Made by a program: the position numbers and the translations under genes
Origin: Acidimicrobiia bacterium
GTDB taxonomy: Bacteria; Actinomycetota; Acidimicrobiia; IMCC26256; JAENVU01
Assembly (NCBI GenBank): GCA_036502405.1
Contig: DASXYP010000065.1
Location: 3,687-67,686 of the forward strand
Length of the DNA stretch: 64,000 bases
Reading direction: 5' to 3'
Part shown: piece by piece, positions 13,170 to 55,130 of the stretch
How the letters are laid out: each line of letters starts with the position of its first letter
How positions within the stretch are numbered: position 1 is the first letter of the stretch
Notes under the pieces: generated by a model
Databases searched by the model: none
What the model was told of the DNA's origin: nothing
The model's input: only the letters and a program-made list of their open reading frames with translations

Positions 13170-15412
13170 TGCCCTGGAAGGGGTCCGCGAAGGTCAAGGG
13201 GCCGAAGGGAACGCGCACGAGCCTCTGGGTCGGCTTCAAGCCGTACGGCGTCGGCGAGCAGAAGCCCAACCACTACGCCGACATGGCCAAGATCGCGTGG
13301 AAGAACCGGCGCAACCTGCCGTACGCGTGGCGCATCCTGAGCAAGGGCGTCTGCGACGGCTGCGCACTCGGCGTCGCGGGCTTCCACGACTGGACGCTGT
13401 CCGGTGTCCACCTCTGCACCACGCGGCTGAACCTGCTGCGTGTGAACACGATGGGCGCGCTCGATCCGATCGTCCTGCGCGACGTCGCGGCACTGCGGAA
13501 GCTGAGTGGCGCCGAGCTGCGCGAGCTGGGCCGGCTCCCGTACCCGATGGTGCGCCGGCGGGGTGAGGCCGGGTTCACCAGGGCGTCGTGGGACGAGGCG
13601 CTCGACCTGATTGCGGGCCGGATCCGGCGCATCGACCCCGACGCGTTCGCGCTCTACCTGACCGCGCGCGGCATCACCAACGAGGTGTACTACGTCGCGC
13701 AGAAGATGACGCGCGTCATCGGCACCAACAACGTCGACAACGCCGCACGCGTGTGCCACTCCCCGTCGACGACCGCGCTCAAGCGCACGATCGGCGTGGC
13801 CGCCACGACGTGCTCATACACGGACGTGATCTCCAGCGACCTGATCGTGCTCTTCGGCGCCAACGTCGCGAACGCGCAACCGGTCTTCATGAAGTACCTC
13901 TTCCTCGCCCGCAAGCGCGGCGCGAAGGTCGCAGTCGTCAACCCGGTGCGCGAACCCGGCCTCGACCGCTACTGGGTGCCGAGCAACGTCGAGAGCGCGA
14001 TCTTCGGCACCAAGATGGCCGACGAGTTCTTCGGCGTGCATCACGGCGGCGACATCGCGTTCCTGAACGGCGTGCTGAAGGTGCTGCTCGCCGAAGGTGG
14101 CGTCGACCGGGCGTTCGTCCACCAGCACACGACGGGGTTCGACCGCCTGCTCCGCGAGCTCGAGGCCGAGTCCTTCGCGGACCTGGAGGAGGCGTCCGGC
14201 GCGACCCGGGACGACATGGCGCGCTTCGCCCGCATGTACGCGGGCGCGCCGTCGGCGGTCCTGATCTGGTCCATGGGGATCACCCAGCACGCGAACGGTG
14301 TCGACAACGTCACGGCGATCGTGAACCTGGCCCTGGCCCGGGGCAACGTCGGCCGCAAAGGCGCCGGGCTCATGCCGATCCGCGGGCATTCGGGTGTGCA
14401 GGGCGGCTCCGAGATGGGGGCCTACGCGACCTCGTTCCCGGGCGGCGTCTCGATCGACGCGACCAGCGCGGCTGCGTTGTCCGAGACCTACAGCATCCCG
14501 GTCGGGGCACGCGACGGCCTCACCGCGGACGCGATGGTCGAGGCCGGGGCGCGTGGCAACGTCGAGGTCCTGTATTCGAGCGGGGGCAACTTCCTCGACG
14601 TGCTGCCCGATCCCGCGTCGGTCCAGGACGCGCTCGAGCGCGTGCCCCTGCGTGTCCACCAGGACATCGTCGTGTCGAGCCAGATGCTCGTGGACCCGGG
14701 CGAGGTCGTGGTCCTGCTGCCCGCGTGCACCCGGTACGAACAGGCCGGCGGCGGCACCGAGACCACCACCGAGCGGCGCGTGCTCTACAGCCCCGAGATC
14801 CCGGGCCCGCGCATCGGTGAAGCGCGCAGCGAGTGGGAGATCTTCGCCGACCTCGGCCGCCGGGCCCGGCCCGACCGCGCCCACCTCCTCGAGTTCGCGG
14901 ACGCGGATGCGGTGCGAGAGGAGATCGCCCGGGTGGTGCCCACCTACGCCGGGGTCGACCAGCTGCAGAAGCTGGGGGACCAGGTGCAGTGGGGTGGCAC
15001 GCGGCTCTGCGCGGGCGGTGTGTTCCCGACCGAGGACGGCAAGGCCCGCTTCTCCGCGGTCGCGCCGGCGCCGAGTCAGCGCGGTCCGGATCGCTTCGTC
15101 CTGAGCACGCGCCGGGGCAAGCAGTTCAACACGATGGTCTACGCCGACGTCGATCCCCTGACCGGCGCGAAGCGGGACGCCCTGTTCCTCGGCGCGAAGG
15201 ACGCGCAGGCGCTGGGCGTCGAAGAGGGGTCCGCGGTCCTCGTGCGGTCCGAGCACGGTGAGCTGCACGCCCGCGTGCACCTCGCCCCGATCCGCTCCGG
15301 CAACGTGCAGGTCTTCTTCCCCGAGGGCAACGTGCTGCTGCCCCGGGGCCGTCTCGACCCCGAATCCGGGGTGCCCGACTACAACGCCACGGTCGAGATC
15401 CTGCCGAAATAG
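13169..15412 (+). CDS. FdhF/YdeP family molybdopterin oxidoreductase
   Basis: CDGCALG, NNVDNAARVCHSPS, WSMGITQH, PIRGHSGVQG, TRRGKQFN; TGATG coupling to fdhD. Confidence 0.92.
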   Translation: MPWKGSAKVKGPKGTRTSLWVGFKPYGVGEQKPNHYADMAKIAWKNRRNLPYAWRILSKGVCDGCALGVAGFHDWTLSGVHLCTTRLNLLRVNTMGALDPIVLRDVAALRKLSGAELRELGRLPYPMVRRRGEAGFTRASWDEALDLIAGRIRRIDPDAFALYLTARGITNEVYYVAQKMTRVIGTNNVDNAARVCHSPSTTALKRTIGVAATTCSYTDVISSDLIVLFGANVANAQPVFMKYLFLARKRGAKVAVVNPVREPGLDRYWVPSNVESAIFGTKMADEFFGVHHGGDIAFLNGVLKVLLAEGGVDRAFVHQHTTGFDRLLRELEAESFADLEEASGATRDDMARFARMYAGAPSAVLIWSMGITQHANGVDNVTAIVNLALARGNVGRKGAGLMPIRGHSGVQGGSEMGAYATSFPGGVSIDATSAAALSETYSIPVGARDGLTADAMVEAGARGNVEVLYSSGGNFLDVLPDPASVQDALERVPLRVHQDIVVSSQMLVDPGEVVVLLPACTRYEQAGGGTETTTERRVLYSPEIPGPRIGEARSEWEIFADLGRRARPDRAHLLEFADADAVREEIARVVPTYAGVDQLQKLGDQVQWGGTRLCAGGVFPTEDGKARFSAVAPAPSQRGPDRFVLSTRRGKQFNTMVYADVDPLTGAKRDALFLGAKDAQALGVEEGSAVLVRSEHGELHARVHLAPIRSGNVQVFFPEGNVLLPRGRLDPESGVPDYNATVEILPK

Positions 15413-15614
15413 TGCCCCGACCGGCATCGACCGGCGGGTTCCCGCCGGCCAGGAACACCGCTCGCGGCGTCCTCGTTGCAGAAGCCCACCGCGCCCTGGT
15501 CCTGCGTCCTTGCGAGCCGCGCCCCGGCCTCGCCGTGAACATCGCCGTCGTCACCGGACGGAGCACCGGCCCGAGCCACGCGCTTCGGGCATCGTCTGCG
15601 AGAATCACCGCCGC

Positions 15615-16355
15615 ATGCATGAATCCCTGCTGACCCTGTTCGACAAGACCGCAGTGGCGATCCGCGACGCGGTGGCGCCGATCAGGGGGGAGCAGCGTCG
15701 GGCGCGGACCGACCGCCCCGGCCAGTACGCCATCGACGTCGTGGCGGACCGGGCGGCCCTGGAGATCCTGCACCGGGTGCCGTTGACGGTGGTGAGCGAG
15801 GAGTCGGGGATCACGGGCACCGCCAACGCGCCGATCACGGTCGTGATCGACCCGATCGACGGCTCCAGCAACGCGTCACGGGACATCCCGTATTGGGCCA
15901 CCTCGCTGTGCGCGCTGGACCGGGACGGTCCGCTCGCCGCGATGGTGATCAACCACGCGACCGGGTCGTCGTTCCGGGCCCTGCGGGGGGCGGGTGCGAC
16001 GCGCGACGGCGAACCGCTCGAACCGTCGAGCGCGACACGAGTCGAGGATGCGGTCGTCGGGATCTCCAACCTTCCGGGTCGGGTGCTCGCGTGGAAGCAG
16101 TTCCGTGCGCTCGGGTCGTGCGCGCTGGCGCTCTGTGACGTCGCGTACGGCGCACTGGACGGCTACTTCGACGCGGGCAGCGTCCACGCGCCGTGGGACT
16201 ACCTCGGCGGACTGCTGATCTGCACCGAGGCCGGCGTGACGATCGTCGACGCCGAGGACCGTCCGCTCGGCATCGCGGACCCGAACGCACGACGCCGACT
16301 GGTCGCGGCCGGGACCCCTCAGCTGCTGCAGTCGCTGCGCGCGGCCGCGGGGTGA
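15615..16355 (+). CDS. Inositol monophosphatase family protein
   Basis: VSEESG, IDPIDGSSN, RALGSCAL, APWDYLGG. Confidence 0.88.
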   Translation: MHESLLTLFDKTAVAIRDAVAPIRGEQRRARTDRPGQYAIDVVADRAALEILHRVPLTVVSEESGITGTANAPITVVIDPIDGSSNASRDIPYWATSLCALDRDGPLAAMVINHATGSSFRALRGAGATRDGEPLEPSSATRVEDAVVGISNLPGRVLAWKQFRALGSCALALCDVAYGALDGYFDAGSVHAPWDYLGGLLICTEAGVTIVDAEDRPLGIADPNARRRLVAAGTPQLLQSLRAAAG

Positions 16356-17143
16356 CCGACCTCGATCTCCCGCACCTGCTCGAGGTGGCGGAGGCCGCGG
16401 CGCGCGTCGGAGGGCGGATCGTGCTCGACGGCTTCGGAGCGGCGGCGAGCAACGTCCGGGCGAAGGCGCCGGGCGACTGGGTCAGCGATGTCGACACCGC
16501 CAGCGAGAACGCGGTGCGCGAGTCGCTGGCCGCGCGAGCACCGGACATCGCGTTCTTCGGCGAGGAGAGTGGCGGGGAGCGCGCGCCACTGCGCTGGTTG
16601 GTCGACCCGCTGGACGGCACCGCGAACTTCCTGCACGGGCTGCCCGCGGTGGGTGTGTCCGTCGGGTTGGTGCAGGACCATCGACCGCTCGTCGGCGTCG
16701 TGCACGCGCCGATGCTCGGCGACACCTACTGCGCCACGGCCGGTGGCGGCGCGACGCGCAACGGCGTCCCGCTTGCCGTCAGCTCACGCGCGCCGGCCGA
16801 GGCCATCCCCGCGACCGGGTTCCCGTTCCGGCACAAGGAGTGGATCGACGGGTACCTCGCGGTCTACCGGGAGACGTACTCGGTGGTCGAGGACCTGCGC
16901 CGGGTCGGCGCCGCCAGCCTCGACCTGGCGTGGAGCGCGGCGGGCGTGTTCGACGGGTTCTTCGAGCTGGGCCTGGGCCCGTGGGACGTGGCCGCGGGGG
17001 CGCTGCTCGTCCGGGAGGCCGGCGGGGTGGTGACCGACTGGGTCGGCGACCCCGACGCCTGGCTGGAGAGCGGCAACATCCTGGCCGGTCCCCCTGCCGT
17101 CCACGCCCGGCTGCTCGAGATCACCCGGGTGGCCGGGTTCTGA
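16352..17143 (+). CDS. Inositol monophosphatase family protein (SuhB-like)
   Basis: GEESG, WLVDPLDGTANF, RRVGAASLDL, PWDVAAG; GTGA overlap. Confidence 0.92.
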   Translation: MTDLDLPHLLEVAEAAARVGGRIVLDGFGAAASNVRAKAPGDWVSDVDTASENAVRESLAARAPDIAFFGEESGGERAPLRWLVDPLDGTANFLHGLPAVGVSVGLVQDHRPLVGVVHAPMLGDTYCATAGGGATRNGVPLAVSSRAPAEAIPATGFPFRHKEWIDGYLAVYRETYSVVEDLRRVGAASLDLAWSAAGVFDGFFELGLGPWDVAAGALLVREAGGVVTDWVGDPDAWLESGNILAGPPAVHARLLEITRVAGF

Positions 17144-17302
17144 GCCCGGGCTCAGGTCCCGGGCCGGGATCGCCGAATATTCGGTTGACGCCACCCACCT
17201 GGGTCTGATTGCCTACACTTCGCAGTCGAATCACCGTCATGTGATCCGTCGGCACCACCCGAAGTCCGCAGCCACGTCCGCGACGAACCGGAAGCCAGCA
17301 CG

Positions 17303-17476
17303 ATGCATTGCCACGCCGAGCTCCAGCACCAGGCAGCCTTCGGCGTCGCGCGCGTCCGTTCGGCCGGTGCGTACGTCACGCCGAAGCTGGGCTCGTGGTC
17401 GATTCTCCCCACCACCGGGATGAACAACGACCCGAAGACTCCCCGGCCCCGACGCCACCCGGTGACCTCGCCGTAG
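17303..17476 (+). CDS. Putative whiB7 leader peptide (uORF, 57 aa)
   Basis: Manual translation MHCHAELQHQAAFGVARVRSAGAYVTPKLGSWSILPTTGMNNDPKTPRPRRHPVTSP*; high GC3; ends 24 nt before a terminator. Confidence 0.65.
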   Translation: MHCHAELQHQAAFGVARVRSAGAYVTPKLGSWSILPTTGMNNDPKTPRPRRHPVTSP

Positions 17477-17500
17477 CCCACCCGCTACCGCACACCCACC

Positions 17501-17538
17501 AGGCCGTCGGGGCAACCCGGCGGCCTTTCTTGTGTTTC
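17501..17538 (+). terminator. Intrinsic terminator (attenuator) in the whiB7 leader
   Basis: AGGCCGTCGGG-GCAA-CCCGGCGGCCT 11-bp stem followed by TTCTTGTGTTT. Confidence 0.85.
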
Positions 17539-17596
17539 CGAACGGTCGCCACCCCGAACCCCGAACCGAGCACGACCGAAGAGAGAGGGCAAGGCG

Positions 17597-17941
17597 ATGA
17601 TCGCCATCGAGATCGAGATCGCAGAAGAGGAGCCCTGGCGGGCCGACGCGCTGTGCCGGGACGGCTCGGCGTCGCTGGTCGAGCTGTTCTTCTCGGAGCA
17701 GCTCGACGACATCGCACGGGCCAAGGCGTTCTGCCGGGGTTGCGCGGTCCGGGCCGAGTGCCTGGACGCGGCGCTCGACCGGCGCGAGCCCTGGGGTGTC
17801 TGGGGCGGTGAGCTCCTCGCCAACGGCAAGGTGCTCGCGCAGAAGCGGAAGCGGGGGAGGCCACCCAAGGTCGCCCCGCCGACGCTCCTGAACCCGGTCA
17901 TCCGGGTGCAGGACGTCCTCGCCCAGAAGCAGACGGCCTGA
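17597..17941 (+). CDS. whiB7: WhiB7/WblC-type Fe-S transcriptional activator
   Basis: Four Cys, EPWGVWGGE turn and C-terminal AT-hook KRKRGRPPK, typical of the WhiB7 class. Confidence 0.88.
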   Translation: MIAIEIEIAEEEPWRADALCRDGSASLVELFFSEQLDDIARAKAFCRGCAVRAECLDAALDRREPWGVWGGELLANGKVLAQKRKRGRPPKVAPPTLLNPVIRVQDVLAQKQTA

Positions 17942-17971
17942 GCCGCGGCTCAGGTCAGGTTCGCCGCATAT

Positions 17972-18052
17972 GGGCGGGCCGAGGTGACGCACAGGTCCGG
18001 GTCGGGGCGTTGTCCCCCCGACGCCCCGACCTCGACGAGCCTCGGCCTGCCC
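17972..18052 (+). ncRNA. Candidate structured RNA: long hairpin with a C-rich loop
   Basis: Outer stem GGGCGGGCCGAGG/CCTCGGCCTGCCC; inner stem GTCGGGGCGTTG/CGACGCCCCGAC; TCCCCCC apex at 18013-18019. Confidence 0.45.
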
Positions 18053-18140
18053 GCGGCCAATCCCTTCGGTTTCGGTGGTGATCGGCCGGGGGACCCTCCG
18101 GCAGTGAAGCGCCACGCGCGAACCCGTCGGGTGTGAAGGA

Positions 18141-19193
18141 GTGCAGGCGGCGGCCACCGCGCCCGAGGTGACTTCGCGCCGGGCCCACTGGTTCCCCTGG
18201 GTCGTCGGCCTGGTGGTCGCCGCGGTCGCGCTCGTCGTCGTCATCGAGCTCGCGGGCGGCATCAGCGAGTCGCTCGACGCGCTGGGCCAGGCCGACCTGT
18301 CGCTGGTCGCGCTGGGCGTCGGGTTCGAAGCGGGAAGCTTCCTGTTCATCGCGCTGTACCTCCGCCGGCTCGTCGGCGGCGACCCGCCCGTCCGACTCGG
18401 GCCGAGCTACTCGCTTGCCCTCGTGGTGTACGGCCTCGGCGCGATCACCCCCGCCTCACCGGTGGAAGGCGTGGCCCTCGGGGTCGCGGAGCTCCGGCGC
18501 ACGGGCCACCCCCGGCGTCGGGCGCTGTTCGCGCTGGGGTACTCGGAGTGGTTCAGCAACGCCGCGCTCATCACGATCCTCGCCGTCGACCTGGTGCTGG
18601 CGACGGTGTTCGAAGACGTGCGCCACGACGAACGGGTTCCGTTCCTCCTGCTCGCCGCGGCGTTGCTCGTTGCCCTCGTGATCGTCGGAGTGTTCCTCAC
18701 GAGCAAGCGCACGATCGCGGTGCTGGCGGCGGTGTGGAGTCGGGTGTGCTTCTGGCGGCCGCGCCCATCGGAGCAGGACCTGCGGGCCGCGGTCGAGCGA
18801 CTTCACGCGGACCGCGACGCGGTCATCGGCGACCGGTGGAACCAGGCTCGCCTGCTGCTGCTCGCCACCGGCGCCTGGCTGTTCGACGTCGCGTGCCTCG
18901 AAGCGTCGCTGCTCGCAATGGGTGTGCACGCCAACCTCGACCAGCTGATCCTCGCCTACGGCGCCGGCATCCTCGCGGCCGCGGTCCCTTTCGTCCCCGC
19001 CGGGTTCGGCCTCACCGAGGTGGCGATGCCCGCGGTCCTGCACCACTACGGCGTGCCGTTGGCCCCGGCGCTCGCCGGAGCACTCGCGTACCGGGCGATC
19101 GGGACGCTCCTTCCCGCGTCCTTGGGCGGGCTGTTCGCGCTGGGCATGCGGCGCCGGTCGCGCGGCTACCGTGATCTGCCCTCGGGCGCTTAG
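18141..19193 (+). CDS. Lysylphosphatidylglycerol synthase TM domain / YbhN-like flippase
   Basis: Multi-TM; PFVPAGFGLTE, ALAYRAI. Confidence 0.8.
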   Translation: MQAAATAPEVTSRRAHWFPWVVGLVVAAVALVVVIELAGGISESLDALGQADLSLVALGVGFEAGSFLFIALYLRRLVGGDPPVRLGPSYSLALVVYGLGAITPASPVEGVALGVAELRRTGHPRRRALFALGYSEWFSNAALITILAVDLVLATVFEDVRHDERVPFLLLAAALLVALVIVGVFLTSKRTIAVLAAVWSRVCFWRPRPSEQDLRAAVERLHADRDAVIGDRWNQARLLLLATGAWLFDVACLEASLLAMGVHANLDQLILAYGAGILAAAVPFVPAGFGLTEVAMPAVLHHYGVPLAPALAGALAYRAIGTLLPASLGGLFALGMRRRSRGYRDLPSGA

Positions 19194-19256
19194 CTCAGTT
19201 GGAAGAGCGCCTCCCTTACAAGGAGGAGGTCGGGGGTTCGAGCCCCTCAGCGCCCA
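19184..19256 (+). tRNA. tRNA-Val(TAC), CCA not encoded
   Basis: GGGCGCT/AGCGCCC acceptor stem, D arm GCTCAGTTGGAAGAGC, anticodon arm CCTCC-CTTACAA-GGAGG, T loop GGTTCGAGCC. Confidence 0.97.
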
Positions 19257-19290
19257 CTGATCCCGAATGACCTCGCCGGCGGCGCGACGG

Positions 19291-30629: not shown

Positions 30630-32765
30630 ATGGAAGGCCCGTCCCGGCGCTGGCTGCGCTTCTTCGTGATCATCACCCTGGGCGGGATCGGGGTCGGCAT
30701 CTGCCTCGCGGCGCTCGTCCCCGGGGTCCAGAAGATCGCGGGCTCGAGCCAGTACTCGGGCAAGGTCGGCCCGCTGCTCAACCGGCAGTGCGCCATCTGC
30801 GGCGAACCGACGACGGTCTACGACACCGGCGGTCATTACCTGGACACGCTGGGACTGCGCGACCGGCGGCCGGTGGACCTGAGCGACGTGCCGAAGACCC
30901 TGATCAGCGCGGTGATCGCGACCGAGGACCGGACCTTCTACGACAACCCCGGAGTCGACGTGCAGTCGATGATCCGGGCGTTTCTCGAGAACGTCGACAA
31001 GGGTGGCGTCGAGCAGGGCGGCTCGACCATCACCCAGCAGCTGATCAAGAACCGGGTGCTGAAGCACCCCAAGCGCGACCTCAACCGCAAGATCAAGGAG
31101 GCGGCGCTCGCCATCCGGCTGAACGAGGAGTGGTCCAAGAACCACATCCTCCAGGAGTACCTCAACACGGTGTACTTCGGTCAGGGCTCCTACGGCGTGA
31201 AGGCGGCCGCGGCGCGCTACTTCGACAACACCCCGCTCGAGAAGATCGACCTCGCCCAGGCCGCACTGCTCGCCGGGCTCATCAAGAACCCGGAGGGTGA
31301 CAACCCGTTCGTCCATTCGGACCACGCGTACGTCCGCCGGGCGCAGGTGCTCGCGACGATGGTCCGCCAGCATCGGATCACCAAGGCGCAGGCTGCGCTC
31401 GCGAACCGTCAGGCGCTGCCGACGGTGGCGCCGCCCGCGGACTTCCGGCCGGACAACTACTACGTCGCGCAGGTGCGCGACCTCCTGACCGAGGACACGA
31501 AGTTCGGGCTCGGCGCGACGTTGAAGGAGCGCGAGGACAAGCTGAACCTCGGCGGGCTCCGGGTGTTCACCGCGTACGACCCGAAGGCCGAGCTGCTCGC
31601 GCAGGCGTCGATCGACTCGACGATCCCGATGACCCAGTTCAAGGTCGGGCTCGCGGCGATGGACCCGAGCAACGGCGACGTGAAGGCGATCGTGGCGGGC
31701 CCGCACCTCAGCTTCAACGACACGCCGTACAACTTCGCGACGATGCCGGCCCCGACCGGTCGCCAGCCCGGCTCCACCTTCAAGGCCGTGGTCCTGGCGA
31801 CCGCGCTCGCCAACGGCTTCTCGGTCAAGGACTCGGTCGACGGCACGTCGCCGTGCACCCTCAAGCTCACCGGCCAGAAGTACAACCCGCTGCTGCGCAC
31901 CCAGAACGCCGAGGGCGGGGGTGGGGTGATGAGCCTCCGCAGCGCGACCGAGAACTCGGTCAACTGTGCCTACTTCCGCCTCGGTGCCGCGGTCGGCCTC
32001 CAGAAGATCTCCGACATGGCGAAGGCGCTCGGGATCACCCACCGGATCAACCCGTCGAATTACTCACTCTCGATCGGCTCGTCCGACGGTGTGTCCCCGC
32101 TCGACATGGCCACCGCGTTCGCGACGTTCGCGGCCGACGGCGTACGCCACGACCCCGTGTTCATCACCAAGGTCGAGGACTCGAGCGGGCACGTGCTCTT
32201 CAAGGACGACTCCCAAGGGATTCGGGTGCTCGATCCTCAGGTGGCCCGGACCGTCACCGACGTCCTGCGCGGCGTGATCACGAAGGGCACCGGGACGCGC
32301 GCCAAGCTCATCGGACACGTCGCCGCCGGCAAGACGGGGACCACCGACCGCGAGCACGACGCGTGGTTCGTGGGCTACACGCCCCAGCTCGTCACCGCGG
32401 TGTGGATGGGCGACCCGACCCAGCTGACGCCGATGAGCCACGTCGGCAAGTTCAGCCCGGTGTTCGGCGGCACCTGGCCCGCGACGGTGTGGCAGAAGTT
32501 CATGACGCTCGCGCTCGCCGGCCAGACCGAGTATCCGTTCGCCGCGCCGGACCAGAAGCTGTGGCCCTTCGGGAAGTACGTCTCGGAGAACGGGCGGGGC
32601 AAGACGATCTCGTCGGGCTCCTCGCGCTTCGGCAGCTCGTCCACGACCCGGGGACGCCCGTTCGGCCGCCAGCCCGGCCCGCTCGCACCCTCGCCGACCG
32701 CGCCGACTTCGCCACCGGCGACGAGCCCGGAGACGACACCGACGCCGAGCACCCCGGGGCCGTGA
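30630..32765 (+). CDS. Class A penicillin-binding protein (transglycosylase/transpeptidase)
   Basis: EDRTFY, QGGSTITQQLIKN, RKIKE, YLNTVYFG; STFK, SVN, KTG. Confidence 0.94.
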   Translation: MEGPSRRWLRFFVIITLGGIGVGICLAALVPGVQKIAGSSQYSGKVGPLLNRQCAICGEPTTVYDTGGHYLDTLGLRDRRPVDLSDVPKTLISAVIATEDRTFYDNPGVDVQSMIRAFLENVDKGGVEQGGSTITQQLIKNRVLKHPKRDLNRKIKEAALAIRLNEEWSKNHILQEYLNTVYFGQGSYGVKAAAARYFDNTPLEKIDLAQAALLAGLIKNPEGDNPFVHSDHAYVRRAQVLATMVRQHRITKAQAALANRQALPTVAPPADFRPDNYYVAQVRDLLTEDTKFGLGATLKEREDKLNLGGLRVFTAYDPKAELLAQASIDSTIPMTQFKVGLAAMDPSNGDVKAIVAGPHLSFNDTPYNFATMPAPTGRQPGSTFKAVVLATALANGFSVKDSVDGTSPCTLKLTGQKYNPLLRTQNAEGGGGVMSLRSATENSVNCAYFRLGAAVGLQKISDMAKALGITHRINPSNYSLSIGSSDGVSPLDMATAFATFAADGVRHDPVFITKVEDSSGHVLFKDDSQGIRVLDPQVARTVTDVLRGVITKGTGTRAKLIGHVAAGKTGTTDREHDAWFVGYTPQLVTAVWMGDPTQLTPMSHVGKFSPVFGGTWPATVWQKFMTLALAGQTEYPFAAPDQKLWPFGKYVSENGRGKTISSGSSRFGSSSTTRGRPFGRQPGPLAPSPTAPTSPPATSPETTPTPSTPGP

Positions 32766-54875: not shown

Positions 54876-55130
54876 ATGATGGCACTACAGGGTCTTCCGG
54901 TTACCGGTGGCTGGCGGCAGCGGGCAGCCTGTCGCGGCATCGACCCCGAGGTGTTCCATCCCGGTGAGGAGGACGACCCCTCCCGGGCGAAGGCGATCTG
55001 CGCAGAGTGCCCGGTACGGGAGGCATGTCTCGAGCACGCACTCGCCGTGCGCGAGAAGCACGGCGTGTGGGGTGGGCTCACCGAGCGGGAGCGCCGGCGG
55101 GTCCTGCGCCAGCGACGCCGGTCCGCCTAG
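54876..55130 (+). CDS. WhiB family transcriptional regulator
   Basis: WRQRAAC, C..CPVREAC, GVWGGLTERERR. Confidence 0.93.
   Translation: MMALQGLPVTGGWRQRAACRGIDPEVFHPGEEDDPSRAKAICAECPVREACLEHALAVREKHGVWGGLTERERRRVLRQRRRSA

Follow-up and report, generated by a model that had tools for sequence, protein, structure and literature searches.

A probable attenuator with an upstream open reading frame in the leader of a whiB7-type gene from the Acidimicrobiia

The whiB7 locus

The leader of a WhiB7-type gene was analysed in a 64 000-nucleotide (nt) stretch of DNA (hereafter the window; contig DASXYP010000065.1 of assembly GCA_036502405.1) from an uncultured soil actinobacterium of the class Acidimicrobiia. 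The closest named records were all metagenome-assembled genomes of uncultured Acidimicrobiia. Along the + strand, which carries all the features of the leader and of the gene described here, lie an AT-rich promoter box, a 57-codon upstream open reading frame (uORF), an intrinsic terminator and whiB7 itself. An initial annotation, made from the letters of the window, had interpreted this arrangement as a ribosome-sensing attenuator of the kind found upstream of whiB7/wblC in Mycobacterium and Streptomyces. The locus was followed up by comparison with relatives, RNA folding, database searches and metatranscriptome data.

The gene (17597-17941) encodes a Wbl transcription factor of 114 residues and is preceded by a candidate Shine-Dalgarno-like sequence, GAGAGGG (17583-17589). 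The product matched the Pfam Whib domain (E = 6.7e-17). As set out in the accessible text of PMC10727445, WhiB7 is defined by four invariant cysteines binding a [4Fe-4S] cluster, the EPW motif, a G[I/V/L]W[G/A]G sequence and the AT-hook RGRP. The four cysteines of the cluster are all present (Cys20, 46, 49 and 55), the WhiB7-specific EPW (64-66) is directly followed by the beta-turn GVWGG (67-71), and the C-terminal AT-hook RGRP (86-89) was kept in the 30 orthologues compared. M. tuberculosis WhiB7 (7kif_Z) was the top match among solved structures, at E = 1.1e-16 and with the AT-hooks in alignment; the remaining Wbl proteins scored 4e-9 or weaker. EPW and a C-terminal RGRP occurred together in just one of the nine Wbl-domain matches of the 3.9-Mb assembly, the product of 17597-17941. 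A further hallmark of the WhiB7/WblC subfamily is binding of region 4 of SigA with activation of resistance genes. Judged by the sequence features that define WhiB7, the gene is a WhiB7-type regulator. NCBIfam gave no match for the WhiB7 product or for the uORF peptide. A second Wbl-family gene in the window, at about 54912-55100 (C65:58598-58786 of the assembly, G000), has neither EPW nor a C-terminal AT-hook and is a different paralogue.

Terminator and antiterminator

The GCAA-loop terminator of the initial annotation was confirmed. Its stem-loop (17501-17526) pairs 17501-17511 with 17516-17526 through 11 base pairs, one of them G-U, around a loop at 17512-17515, and is followed by the T-rich tail TTCTTGTGTTTC at 17527-17538. 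In a consensus scan of 1.4 kb, three terminator-like sites were found versus 0.3 expected, and 17501-17538 was the sole strong site on the + strand. The part of the 5' arm at 17505-17513 is common to the terminator and to the putative antiterminator.

The antiterminator had been proposed as CCCCGACG(CC) at 17447-17456, within Pro-Arg-Arg codons of the uORF. Its location held: CCCCGACG and CGTCGGGG (17505-17512, in the terminator 5' arm) are reverse complements, and the segment with both final C, CCCCGACGCC, encodes Pro49-Arg50-Arg51. Its length had to be corrected from eight to nine Watson-Crick pairs, which join 17446-17454 to 17505-17513. The 5' strand of the predicted helix is GCCCCGACG (17446-17454), covering codons R48-P49-R50-R51. 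Inside the loop that it would close lies a small predicted hairpin (17473-17488), GUAGC/GCUAC, that pairs 17473-17477 with 17484-17488 and holds the uORF stop codon UAG.

Folding of 17440-17513, before the terminator 3' arm exists, gave the nine-pair helix enclosing the stop-codon hairpin, at -35.9 kcal/mol. The terminator hairpin alone was predicted at -24.5 kcal/mol. Over 17440-17540, the minimum-energy fold, with the terminator, had -42.9 kcal/mol versus -41.3 kcal/mol when the antiterminator was forced. The two folds are nearly isoenergetic, so the region 17440-17540 is predicted to be bistable.

Relatives were searched in 41 genomes, all of which had a Wbl match, and the 30 best whiB7 loci, drawn from the window's genus and family and from further families of its order, were compared (order-level loci). 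Eighty further loci were taken from the class; two were without the EPWGVWGG anchor, leaving 78. With six loci from a phylum-wide genome sample, 100 leaders were obtained (96 distinct), of which 95 were aligned, the incomplete L104 being excluded. This alignment of 95 rows (92 distinct) is called A1, and the alignment of the 30 order-level leaders A2.

The sequence GGCCG[T/C]CGGGG was found upstream of whiB7 in all 30 order-level loci, and the terminator lies 60-70 nt before the gene. A strict scan for a hairpin plus T tail detected the terminator in 29 of these loci, the remaining one (L029) having the stem and a weaker T tail. At class level a terminator with a perfect stem was present in 64/78 loci; 14 failed the strict scan, some of them cut by contig ends. 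On A1, 99.5% of the terminator cells were paired versus 25-61% in slid controls, and seven of the 11 pairs changed on both sides, a level reached by none of 500 shuffles.

The antiterminator corresponds to A1 columns 29-40 and 99-110; its cells paired in 76.2% versus 26.7-55.5% when the partner was slid. Cells changed on both sides numbered 57 versus 27 +/- 6 in shuffles, and 57 was reached in 0/500. Two column pairs showed the clearest covariation, 34/105 (GC 32, AU 30, GU 4, other 13) and 33/106 (GC 57, AU 10, GU 1, other 11). Where the shared 5' arm has U at column 105, the antiterminator strand carries A in 30 sequences and the terminator 3' arm keeps G (U-G 34, U-A 3). Where the arm reads GCTGGG, the uORF segment becomes CCCAGCGGCT (CCCAGC), which puts Gln in place of Arg in the peptide. 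The pairing is kept while the residue changes, so RNA pairing rather than the peptide is the constraint at this site. The stop-codon hairpin was also kept as GTAGC...GCTAC, with both arms changed in some loci (not formally counted). The alignment check suggested with the initial annotation was thus carried out: terminator and antiterminator are both retained with compensatory changes throughout the class. RNAalifold, applied to A2, predicted the antiterminator when the terminator 3' arm was left out and the terminator when it was included.

Related loci from other classes were taken from the phylum-wide sample. There the uORF stop codon lies 17-30 nt before an RGGCC-NNN-GG terminator arm in 12/13 loci, and 52 nt before it in L258. 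Because the arm and the stop geometry are related in other classes, the element in the window looks homologous to the known whiB7/wblC leader rather than convergent.

The hairpin sequence was also searched for in genome contigs with an exact pattern. At least 120 loci were found; among the matches listed, 33 adjoin a whiB7-like gene, and the others belong to unrelated high-GC bacteria, including Streptosporangiaceae, Actinoplanes, Propioniciclava and Baekduia. With 33 among at least 120 loci adjoining a whiB7-like gene, the terminator hairpin alone is no whiB7 marker.

The uORF and its peptide

The 57-residue uORF of the initial annotation was found as described, from the ATG at 17303 to the TAG at 17474-17476 (17303-17476). 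A candidate Shine-Dalgarno sequence, GGAAG (17290-17294), lies 8 nt before the ATG. All 30 order-level loci have a uORF of 54-59 codons, starting with ATG in 29 and GTG in one, and ending 26-31 nt before the terminator 5' arm. At class level the stop codon falls in the same aligned columns in 94 of the 95 sequences, 20-35 nt before that arm. Start and positionally fixed stop remain in frame despite the variation in length. A purine-rich element of the GGAA, AGGA or GGGAA type was seen by eye within the 20 nt upstream of the start in most of the 30 loci; it was not evident in L028. No Pfam match was obtained for the peptide, in which the motifs GVARxR, SWS and PRPRR..SP are kept across the order.

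The uORF of the window contains all 20 amino acids. So do 19 of the 30 order-level uORFs; at least 19 kinds occur in 28 and at least 18 in all 30. Random 57-residue windows of the genome's own long open reading frames (ORFs) had a mean of 15.9 kinds, with all 20 in 1.5% and 19 or more in 8%. Independent draws from the proteome composition gave a mean of 16.8, all 20 in 1.2% and 19 or more in 9%. The other two frames of the same uORF DNA averaged 13.5 kinds, with 17 as the highest value; none of 60 reached 18. Kinship was handled through genus representatives alone: eleven of them (median pairwise identity 39%) had 20, 19, 20, 20, 19, 18, 19, 19, 20, 18 and 20 kinds. Class-wide, the last 50 codons were used as a fixed window independent of start choice. 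They had a mean of 18.2 kinds (n = 92), 47 sequences having at least 19 versus about 3% expected; the mean was 18.05 for the 62 loci outside the order. The mycobacteria-like relatives in the phylum sample have alanine-rich uORFs with 13-17 kinds in the last 50 codons. In the window, Ala makes up 6 of 57 residues (10.5%) versus 12.5% in the genome's long ORFs, which places this uORF outside the alanine-leader (mycobacterial) subtype.

Indirect signs point to translation of the uORF: the frame is kept despite changes in length, a Shine-Dalgarno-like element is present in most loci and the variety of amino acids is high in this frame alone.

Ser-Pro-stop ends 27 of the 30 order-level uORFs (17471-17476 in the window). 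A C-terminal proline slows peptide release. Such a proline would keep the ribosome above the antiterminator loop. Because the stop-codon hairpin is built from these very bases too, the reason for their conservation is confounded. RNAalifold also predicted a helix within the uORF, 17348-17356 with 17389-17397 (A2 columns 82-90 with 144-151). It joins the GVAR-x-R codons to the S-W-S codons and is weakly supported, with covariation at one pair (CG 15, GC 10, GU 3). In this model the two peptide motifs may be constraints on the RNA, or on both RNA and peptide.

Promoter region

The AT-rich box CCGAATATTCGG (17173-17184), a candidate site for the WhiB7 AT-hook, has palindromic flanks. Its core GAATATT (17175-17181) sits 3 nt 5' of the -35 hexamer TTGACG (17185-17190), as the initial annotation had stated. 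An AT-rich run, 3 nt and TTGAC could be aligned in nearly all of the 30 order-level loci, with CTGAC in L008 and TGGAC in L026 as -35 variants. In M. abscessus, according to the accessible text of PMC10727445, each of the 56 WhiB7 regions identified by chromatin immunoprecipitation sequencing had an AT-rich stretch 3 bp 5' of the -35.

The earlier caveat about the -10 was upheld: there is no canonical -10 at normal spacing. The -10 region (17206-17219) offers two candidates. A TG at 17206-17207, one base and TTGCCT (17209-17214) lie at 18 nt from the -35, the hexamer being without A at position 2. TACACT (17214-17219) is a good TANNNT, yet it is spaced 23 nt from the -35, and TACACT-like sequence is confined to the genus of the window. 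Across genera, GGTCTG-N4-YCT is kept, which positions a TG-extended hexamer 18 nt from the -35; where the genus of the window has TTGCCT, another genus has AAGTCT or CAGTCT, which are acceptable hexamers. A transcription start near 17221-17232 would be compatible with the RNA contigs described below.

At the 5' end of the transcript, or close to it, an imperfect hairpin GAATCAC ... GTGATCC (17228-17247) contains the ATG-TGA start-stop already noted, at 17239-17244. NTG-TGA (N = A, G or T) was present in 9/10 loci of the genus, and the hairpin with its start-stop was absent from the other genera in the 30-locus alignment.

The flanks of the AT-rich box form inverted repeats, CCGA-ATAT-TCGG in the window and CCGAT-AAA-ATCGG or GCGAT-A-ATCGT in other genera. 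These could mark the site of a second, dimeric regulator, or simply a favoured context for the AT-hook. The assembly was scanned for further WhiB7 boxes ([AT]4-8, N3, TTGAC), and three matches were found in total, two besides that of whiB7. One other sequence alone in the genome closely resembles the whiB7 promoter box, GGCCGATTTTTGCTTGACGCG (contig C49 of G000, 30631-30643; L259:1632-1644). Flanked by the start of a MarR-family gene on one side and the tail of a GH5 cellulase gene on the other, it points antisense into the cellulase gene.

RNA contigs

Twenty-four metatranscriptome runs matched the window, each by a small share (at most 0.12 of the sampled words), and four were compared with 17100-18000; in these comparisons uncovered parts of the leader region do not mean silence. 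One run (X1) gave a 255-nt contig on 17276-17527 with six differences, a second (X2) a 262-nt contig on 17269-17530 with seven differences, and a third (X3) a 293-nt contig on 17232-17525 with 11 differences and one gap. The fourth (X4) gave a 126-nt contig on 17232-17358. All four contigs match the window over their whole length. They are 96-98% identical to it and so come from a relative. Contigs from three studies end at the terminator (17525-17530), and two contigs begin at 17232. Depth was zero over 17534-17626 in all four runs.

An absence of 3' ends at about 17535 had been named as evidence that would speak against the attenuator. Ends were found at 17525-17530; coming from assembled contigs of a relative, they are a weak hint of premature 3' ends, or leader-only transcripts. 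Cover of 17658-17870 was considered as a sign of whiB7 expression and rejected, as it consisted of short contig pieces with loose ends from the Wbl genes of other organisms.

Proposed mechanism

We consider it about 85% probable that the leader is the Acidimicrobiia version of the uORF-dependent transcription attenuator of whiB7/wblC. The initial annotation's view that the same switch operates in this lineage is supported by the geometry, the covariation and the fold energies; translation of the uORF and induction by stress we infer, as we do the stalling signal, its triggering by antibiotics or starvation, and autoregulation by WhiB7.

Transcription would start downstream of the AT-rich box and the -35, cross the 57-codon uORF and meet the intrinsic terminator. 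In unstressed cells, smooth translation would bring the ribosome to the UAG at 17474-17476, where, while terminating, it would cover roughly the 50 nt between 17446-17454 and 17505-17513. The antiterminator helix would be blocked from closing, the terminator hairpin would form and the transcript would end near 17530. Under stress, when ribosome-targeting drugs or a shortage of any charged transfer RNA (tRNA) stall ribosomes earlier in the uORF, the antiterminator strand would be left free. It could then pair with the 5' arm once this is transcribed, no terminator would form and RNA polymerase would read into whiB7. WhiB7 would probably then boost its own promoter via the AT-rich box.

Several observations weigh against this interpretation. 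At the promoter, no site was found at the leader in a sigma-70 consensus scan, the properly spaced -10, TTGCCT, is without the key A, and the good TACACT is 23 nt from the -35. The box scan of the 3.9-Mb assembly defined no WhiB7 regulon, and one extra box faces no evident gene. As to the RNA, the z-score of the whole-leader fold relative to shuffles was unremarkable (-1.21), and 24% of the antiterminator cells are unpaired. By an ungapped measure, several lineages keep just five to seven contiguous pairs at the expected place. On a tree of the WhiB7 proteins, the columns of the first pair underwent 9 and 13 parsimony changes, with one to two independent pairs on supported branches; because this independent-pairs test has no power, the covariation statistics from shuffles are to be taken as inflated by kinship. 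In the uORF, differences at codon positions 1/2/3 within two genera were 197/179/248 and 307/328/443, a weak third-position excess, and non-synonymous codon differences exceeded synonymous ones (384 versus 158 and 543 versus 231). The RNA support, finally, consists of assembled contigs rather than reads, from a relative and without a DNA run as control.

What the attenuator would sense is a separate matter. The uORF may be a selected 'one of each' sampler, whose roughly 57 codons hold all 20 amino acids, with a single codon for most of the rare ones, and which would register both a lack of any charged tRNA and drug-induced stalling. As the stop-to-terminator geometry and a related arm recur in other classes of the phylum, the attenuator would go back to the common ancestor of the Actinomycetota. 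We hold this reading tentatively, at slightly less than even odds. If true, the leader would be a complete sensor of translation capacity rather than one tuned to alanine or to a drug.

Alternative explanations

The switch could be real and be set by a small-molecule riboswitch, an RNA-binding protein or a small RNA; the uORF would then be a by-product of GC-rich DNA and not be translated. In DNA of 72% GC open frames abound, and the two other frames over the region are also open; the third-position excess in the uORF is weak, and its conserved C-terminal PRR codons can be accounted for by RNA pairing. Such a by-product is hard to reconcile with an ATG or GTG in frame with a fixed stop in 30/30 loci at lengths of 54-59 codons, with the purine-rich element before most of them, or with 18-20 kinds of amino acids in this frame when the others reach 17 at most. 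Rfam, scanned with 16900-18200 up to E = 10, returned chance-level matches only and no family for the leader, and the 30-leader alignment had no conserved structure besides the two alternative helices and the one weakly supported helix within the uORF. We judge this explanation very unlikely.

The uORF could instead be a small-protein gene in its own right, ended by the terminator, with a promoter for whiB7 alone in the 60-70 nt that follow; the two genes would then be uncoupled. Leader-only RNA contigs would fit a separate small transcript as well, and the motifs GVARxR, SWS and PRPRR..SP are kept in the peptide across the order. However, a consensus scan of 17539-17596 found no promoter-like site, the peptide has no match in Pfam or NCBIfam, and the arrangement always accompanies whiB7 across the phylum. 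A plain gene end would also need no antiterminator, whereas one that overlaps the terminator is conserved here and covaries. The chance of a separate gene seems slim indeed.

Least probable is a four-region switch of the trp type, in which an upstream uORF segment pairs with the antiterminator strand so that zero translation also terminates: GGCGTCG (17342-17348) is complementary, by reading, to CGACGCC (17451-17457) in the window, yet a scan of all five-pair diagonals linking the antiterminator columns to the leader upstream of them, in the 30 aligned sequences, found none well conserved (best mean 0.76 paired, individual columns 0.5-0.6), and RNAalifold predicts no such helix. As no conserved third partner was found, the uORF-dependent attenuator proposed here appears to have two states, like that of whiB7/wblC.

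Comparison with known attenuators

Attenuation in the whiB7/wblC leader of Mycobacterium and Streptomyces was reportedly described by Lee, Lee and Roe in 2022 (Mol Microbiol 117:179). There, as far as the accessible parts of the sources go, efficient translation of the uORF leads to a Rho-independent terminator, stalling leads to an antiterminator and WhiB7 activates its own promoter (10.1101/2023.06.02.543512, PMC11550727, PMC10727445, 10.1101/2025.10.10.681568). These texts bear out the statement of the initial annotation that uORF-dependent antitermination of whiB7/wblC had been established in the two genera. The leader of the window shares with them the type of gene, the long leader with its uORF, the terminator before the gene, an antiterminator that combines the uORF's 3' part with the terminator 5' arm, and the AT-rich box 3 nt upstream of the -35. 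The mechanism is thus already known in Mycobacterium and Streptomyces; new here are the Acidimicrobiia leader and a near-complete amino-acid repertoire that is not alanine-rich. A literature search found no description of a whiB7/wblC leader in the Acidimicrobiia, although supplementary surveys may reach wider.

Features of its own set the Acidimicrobiia leader apart: a short, near-complete uORF, a terminator almost invariant across the order and an atypical -10. The uORF has 57 codons, whereas that of M. smegmatis whiB7 has 83 in the accessible descriptions. In the available text of Poulton et al., the mycobacterial whiB7 uORF is specifically enriched in alanine, Cys is the one amino acid missing from the M. 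smegmatis uORF, and uORF composition sets which starvations induce whiB7. The window has all 20 kinds where mycobacteria-like uORFs have 13-17 in the last 50 codons, and the Acidimicrobiia peptide carries motifs of its own that are kept across the order; published uORF lists may already tabulate amino-acid content. The near-complete repertoire bears on what the switch senses and extends the published finding that composition sets the starvations that induce whiB7.

In the trp, his and leu attenuators of enterobacteria, a leader is translated, terminator and antiterminator hairpins are alternatives, and which of them forms depends on where the ribosome stands. The choice by ribosome position is shared with the switch proposed here. 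The uORF of the window, however, has no run of codons for one amino acid but about one codon for each. A conserved 1:2 anti-antiterminator helix was looked for in the Acidimicrobiia leader and not found, and the gene controlled encodes a transcription factor where the enterobacterial leaders control biosynthetic operons.

Antibiotic-responsive uORF attenuators precede the resistance genes vmlR, vgaA, msrD, lmrC and lmo0919/rli53, and the uORF of E. coli topAI senses several antibiotic classes, as the accessible part of one report states (PMC12121999). In the resistance-gene attenuators and topAI, stalling in a short uORF relieves premature termination, as proposed for the whiB7 leader. The topAI switch is presumably Rho-dependent. 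These uORFs are very short (3-20 codons) and often specific for a drug class, whereas that of the window is long and diverse and is followed by an intrinsic terminator.

In mycobacteria and streptomycetes, intrinsic resistance to ribosome-targeting drugs is under the control of WhiB7, whose induction through uORF attenuators is a topic of active research. A switch supported by covariation throughout the uncultured, deep-branching Acidimicrobiia suggests an old and widespread attenuator in soil and water Actinomycetota beyond the cultured genera. The set of about 90 divergent leaders also separates constraint at the RNA level (antiterminator, terminator and stop position) from free sequence.

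Flanking genes

Upstream of the leader lies a gene of the inositol-monophosphatase/HisN family (16193-17143). The ORF 15258-16355 resembles the same family by eye, and would form a tandem pair with it. Downstream of whiB7, a GC-rich hairpin at 17998-18066 gave a sub-threshold match to 6C RNA (E = 1.4; 24 bits versus a gathering score of 47) and is probably no more than the end of the whiB7 transcript. The product of the next gene (18141-19193) is flippase-like, a membrane protein with kinship to the flippase domain of MprF (TIGR00374, E = 9.7e-18). A gene for tRNA-Val(TAC) at 19184-19257 starts 10 nt before the end of this ORF.

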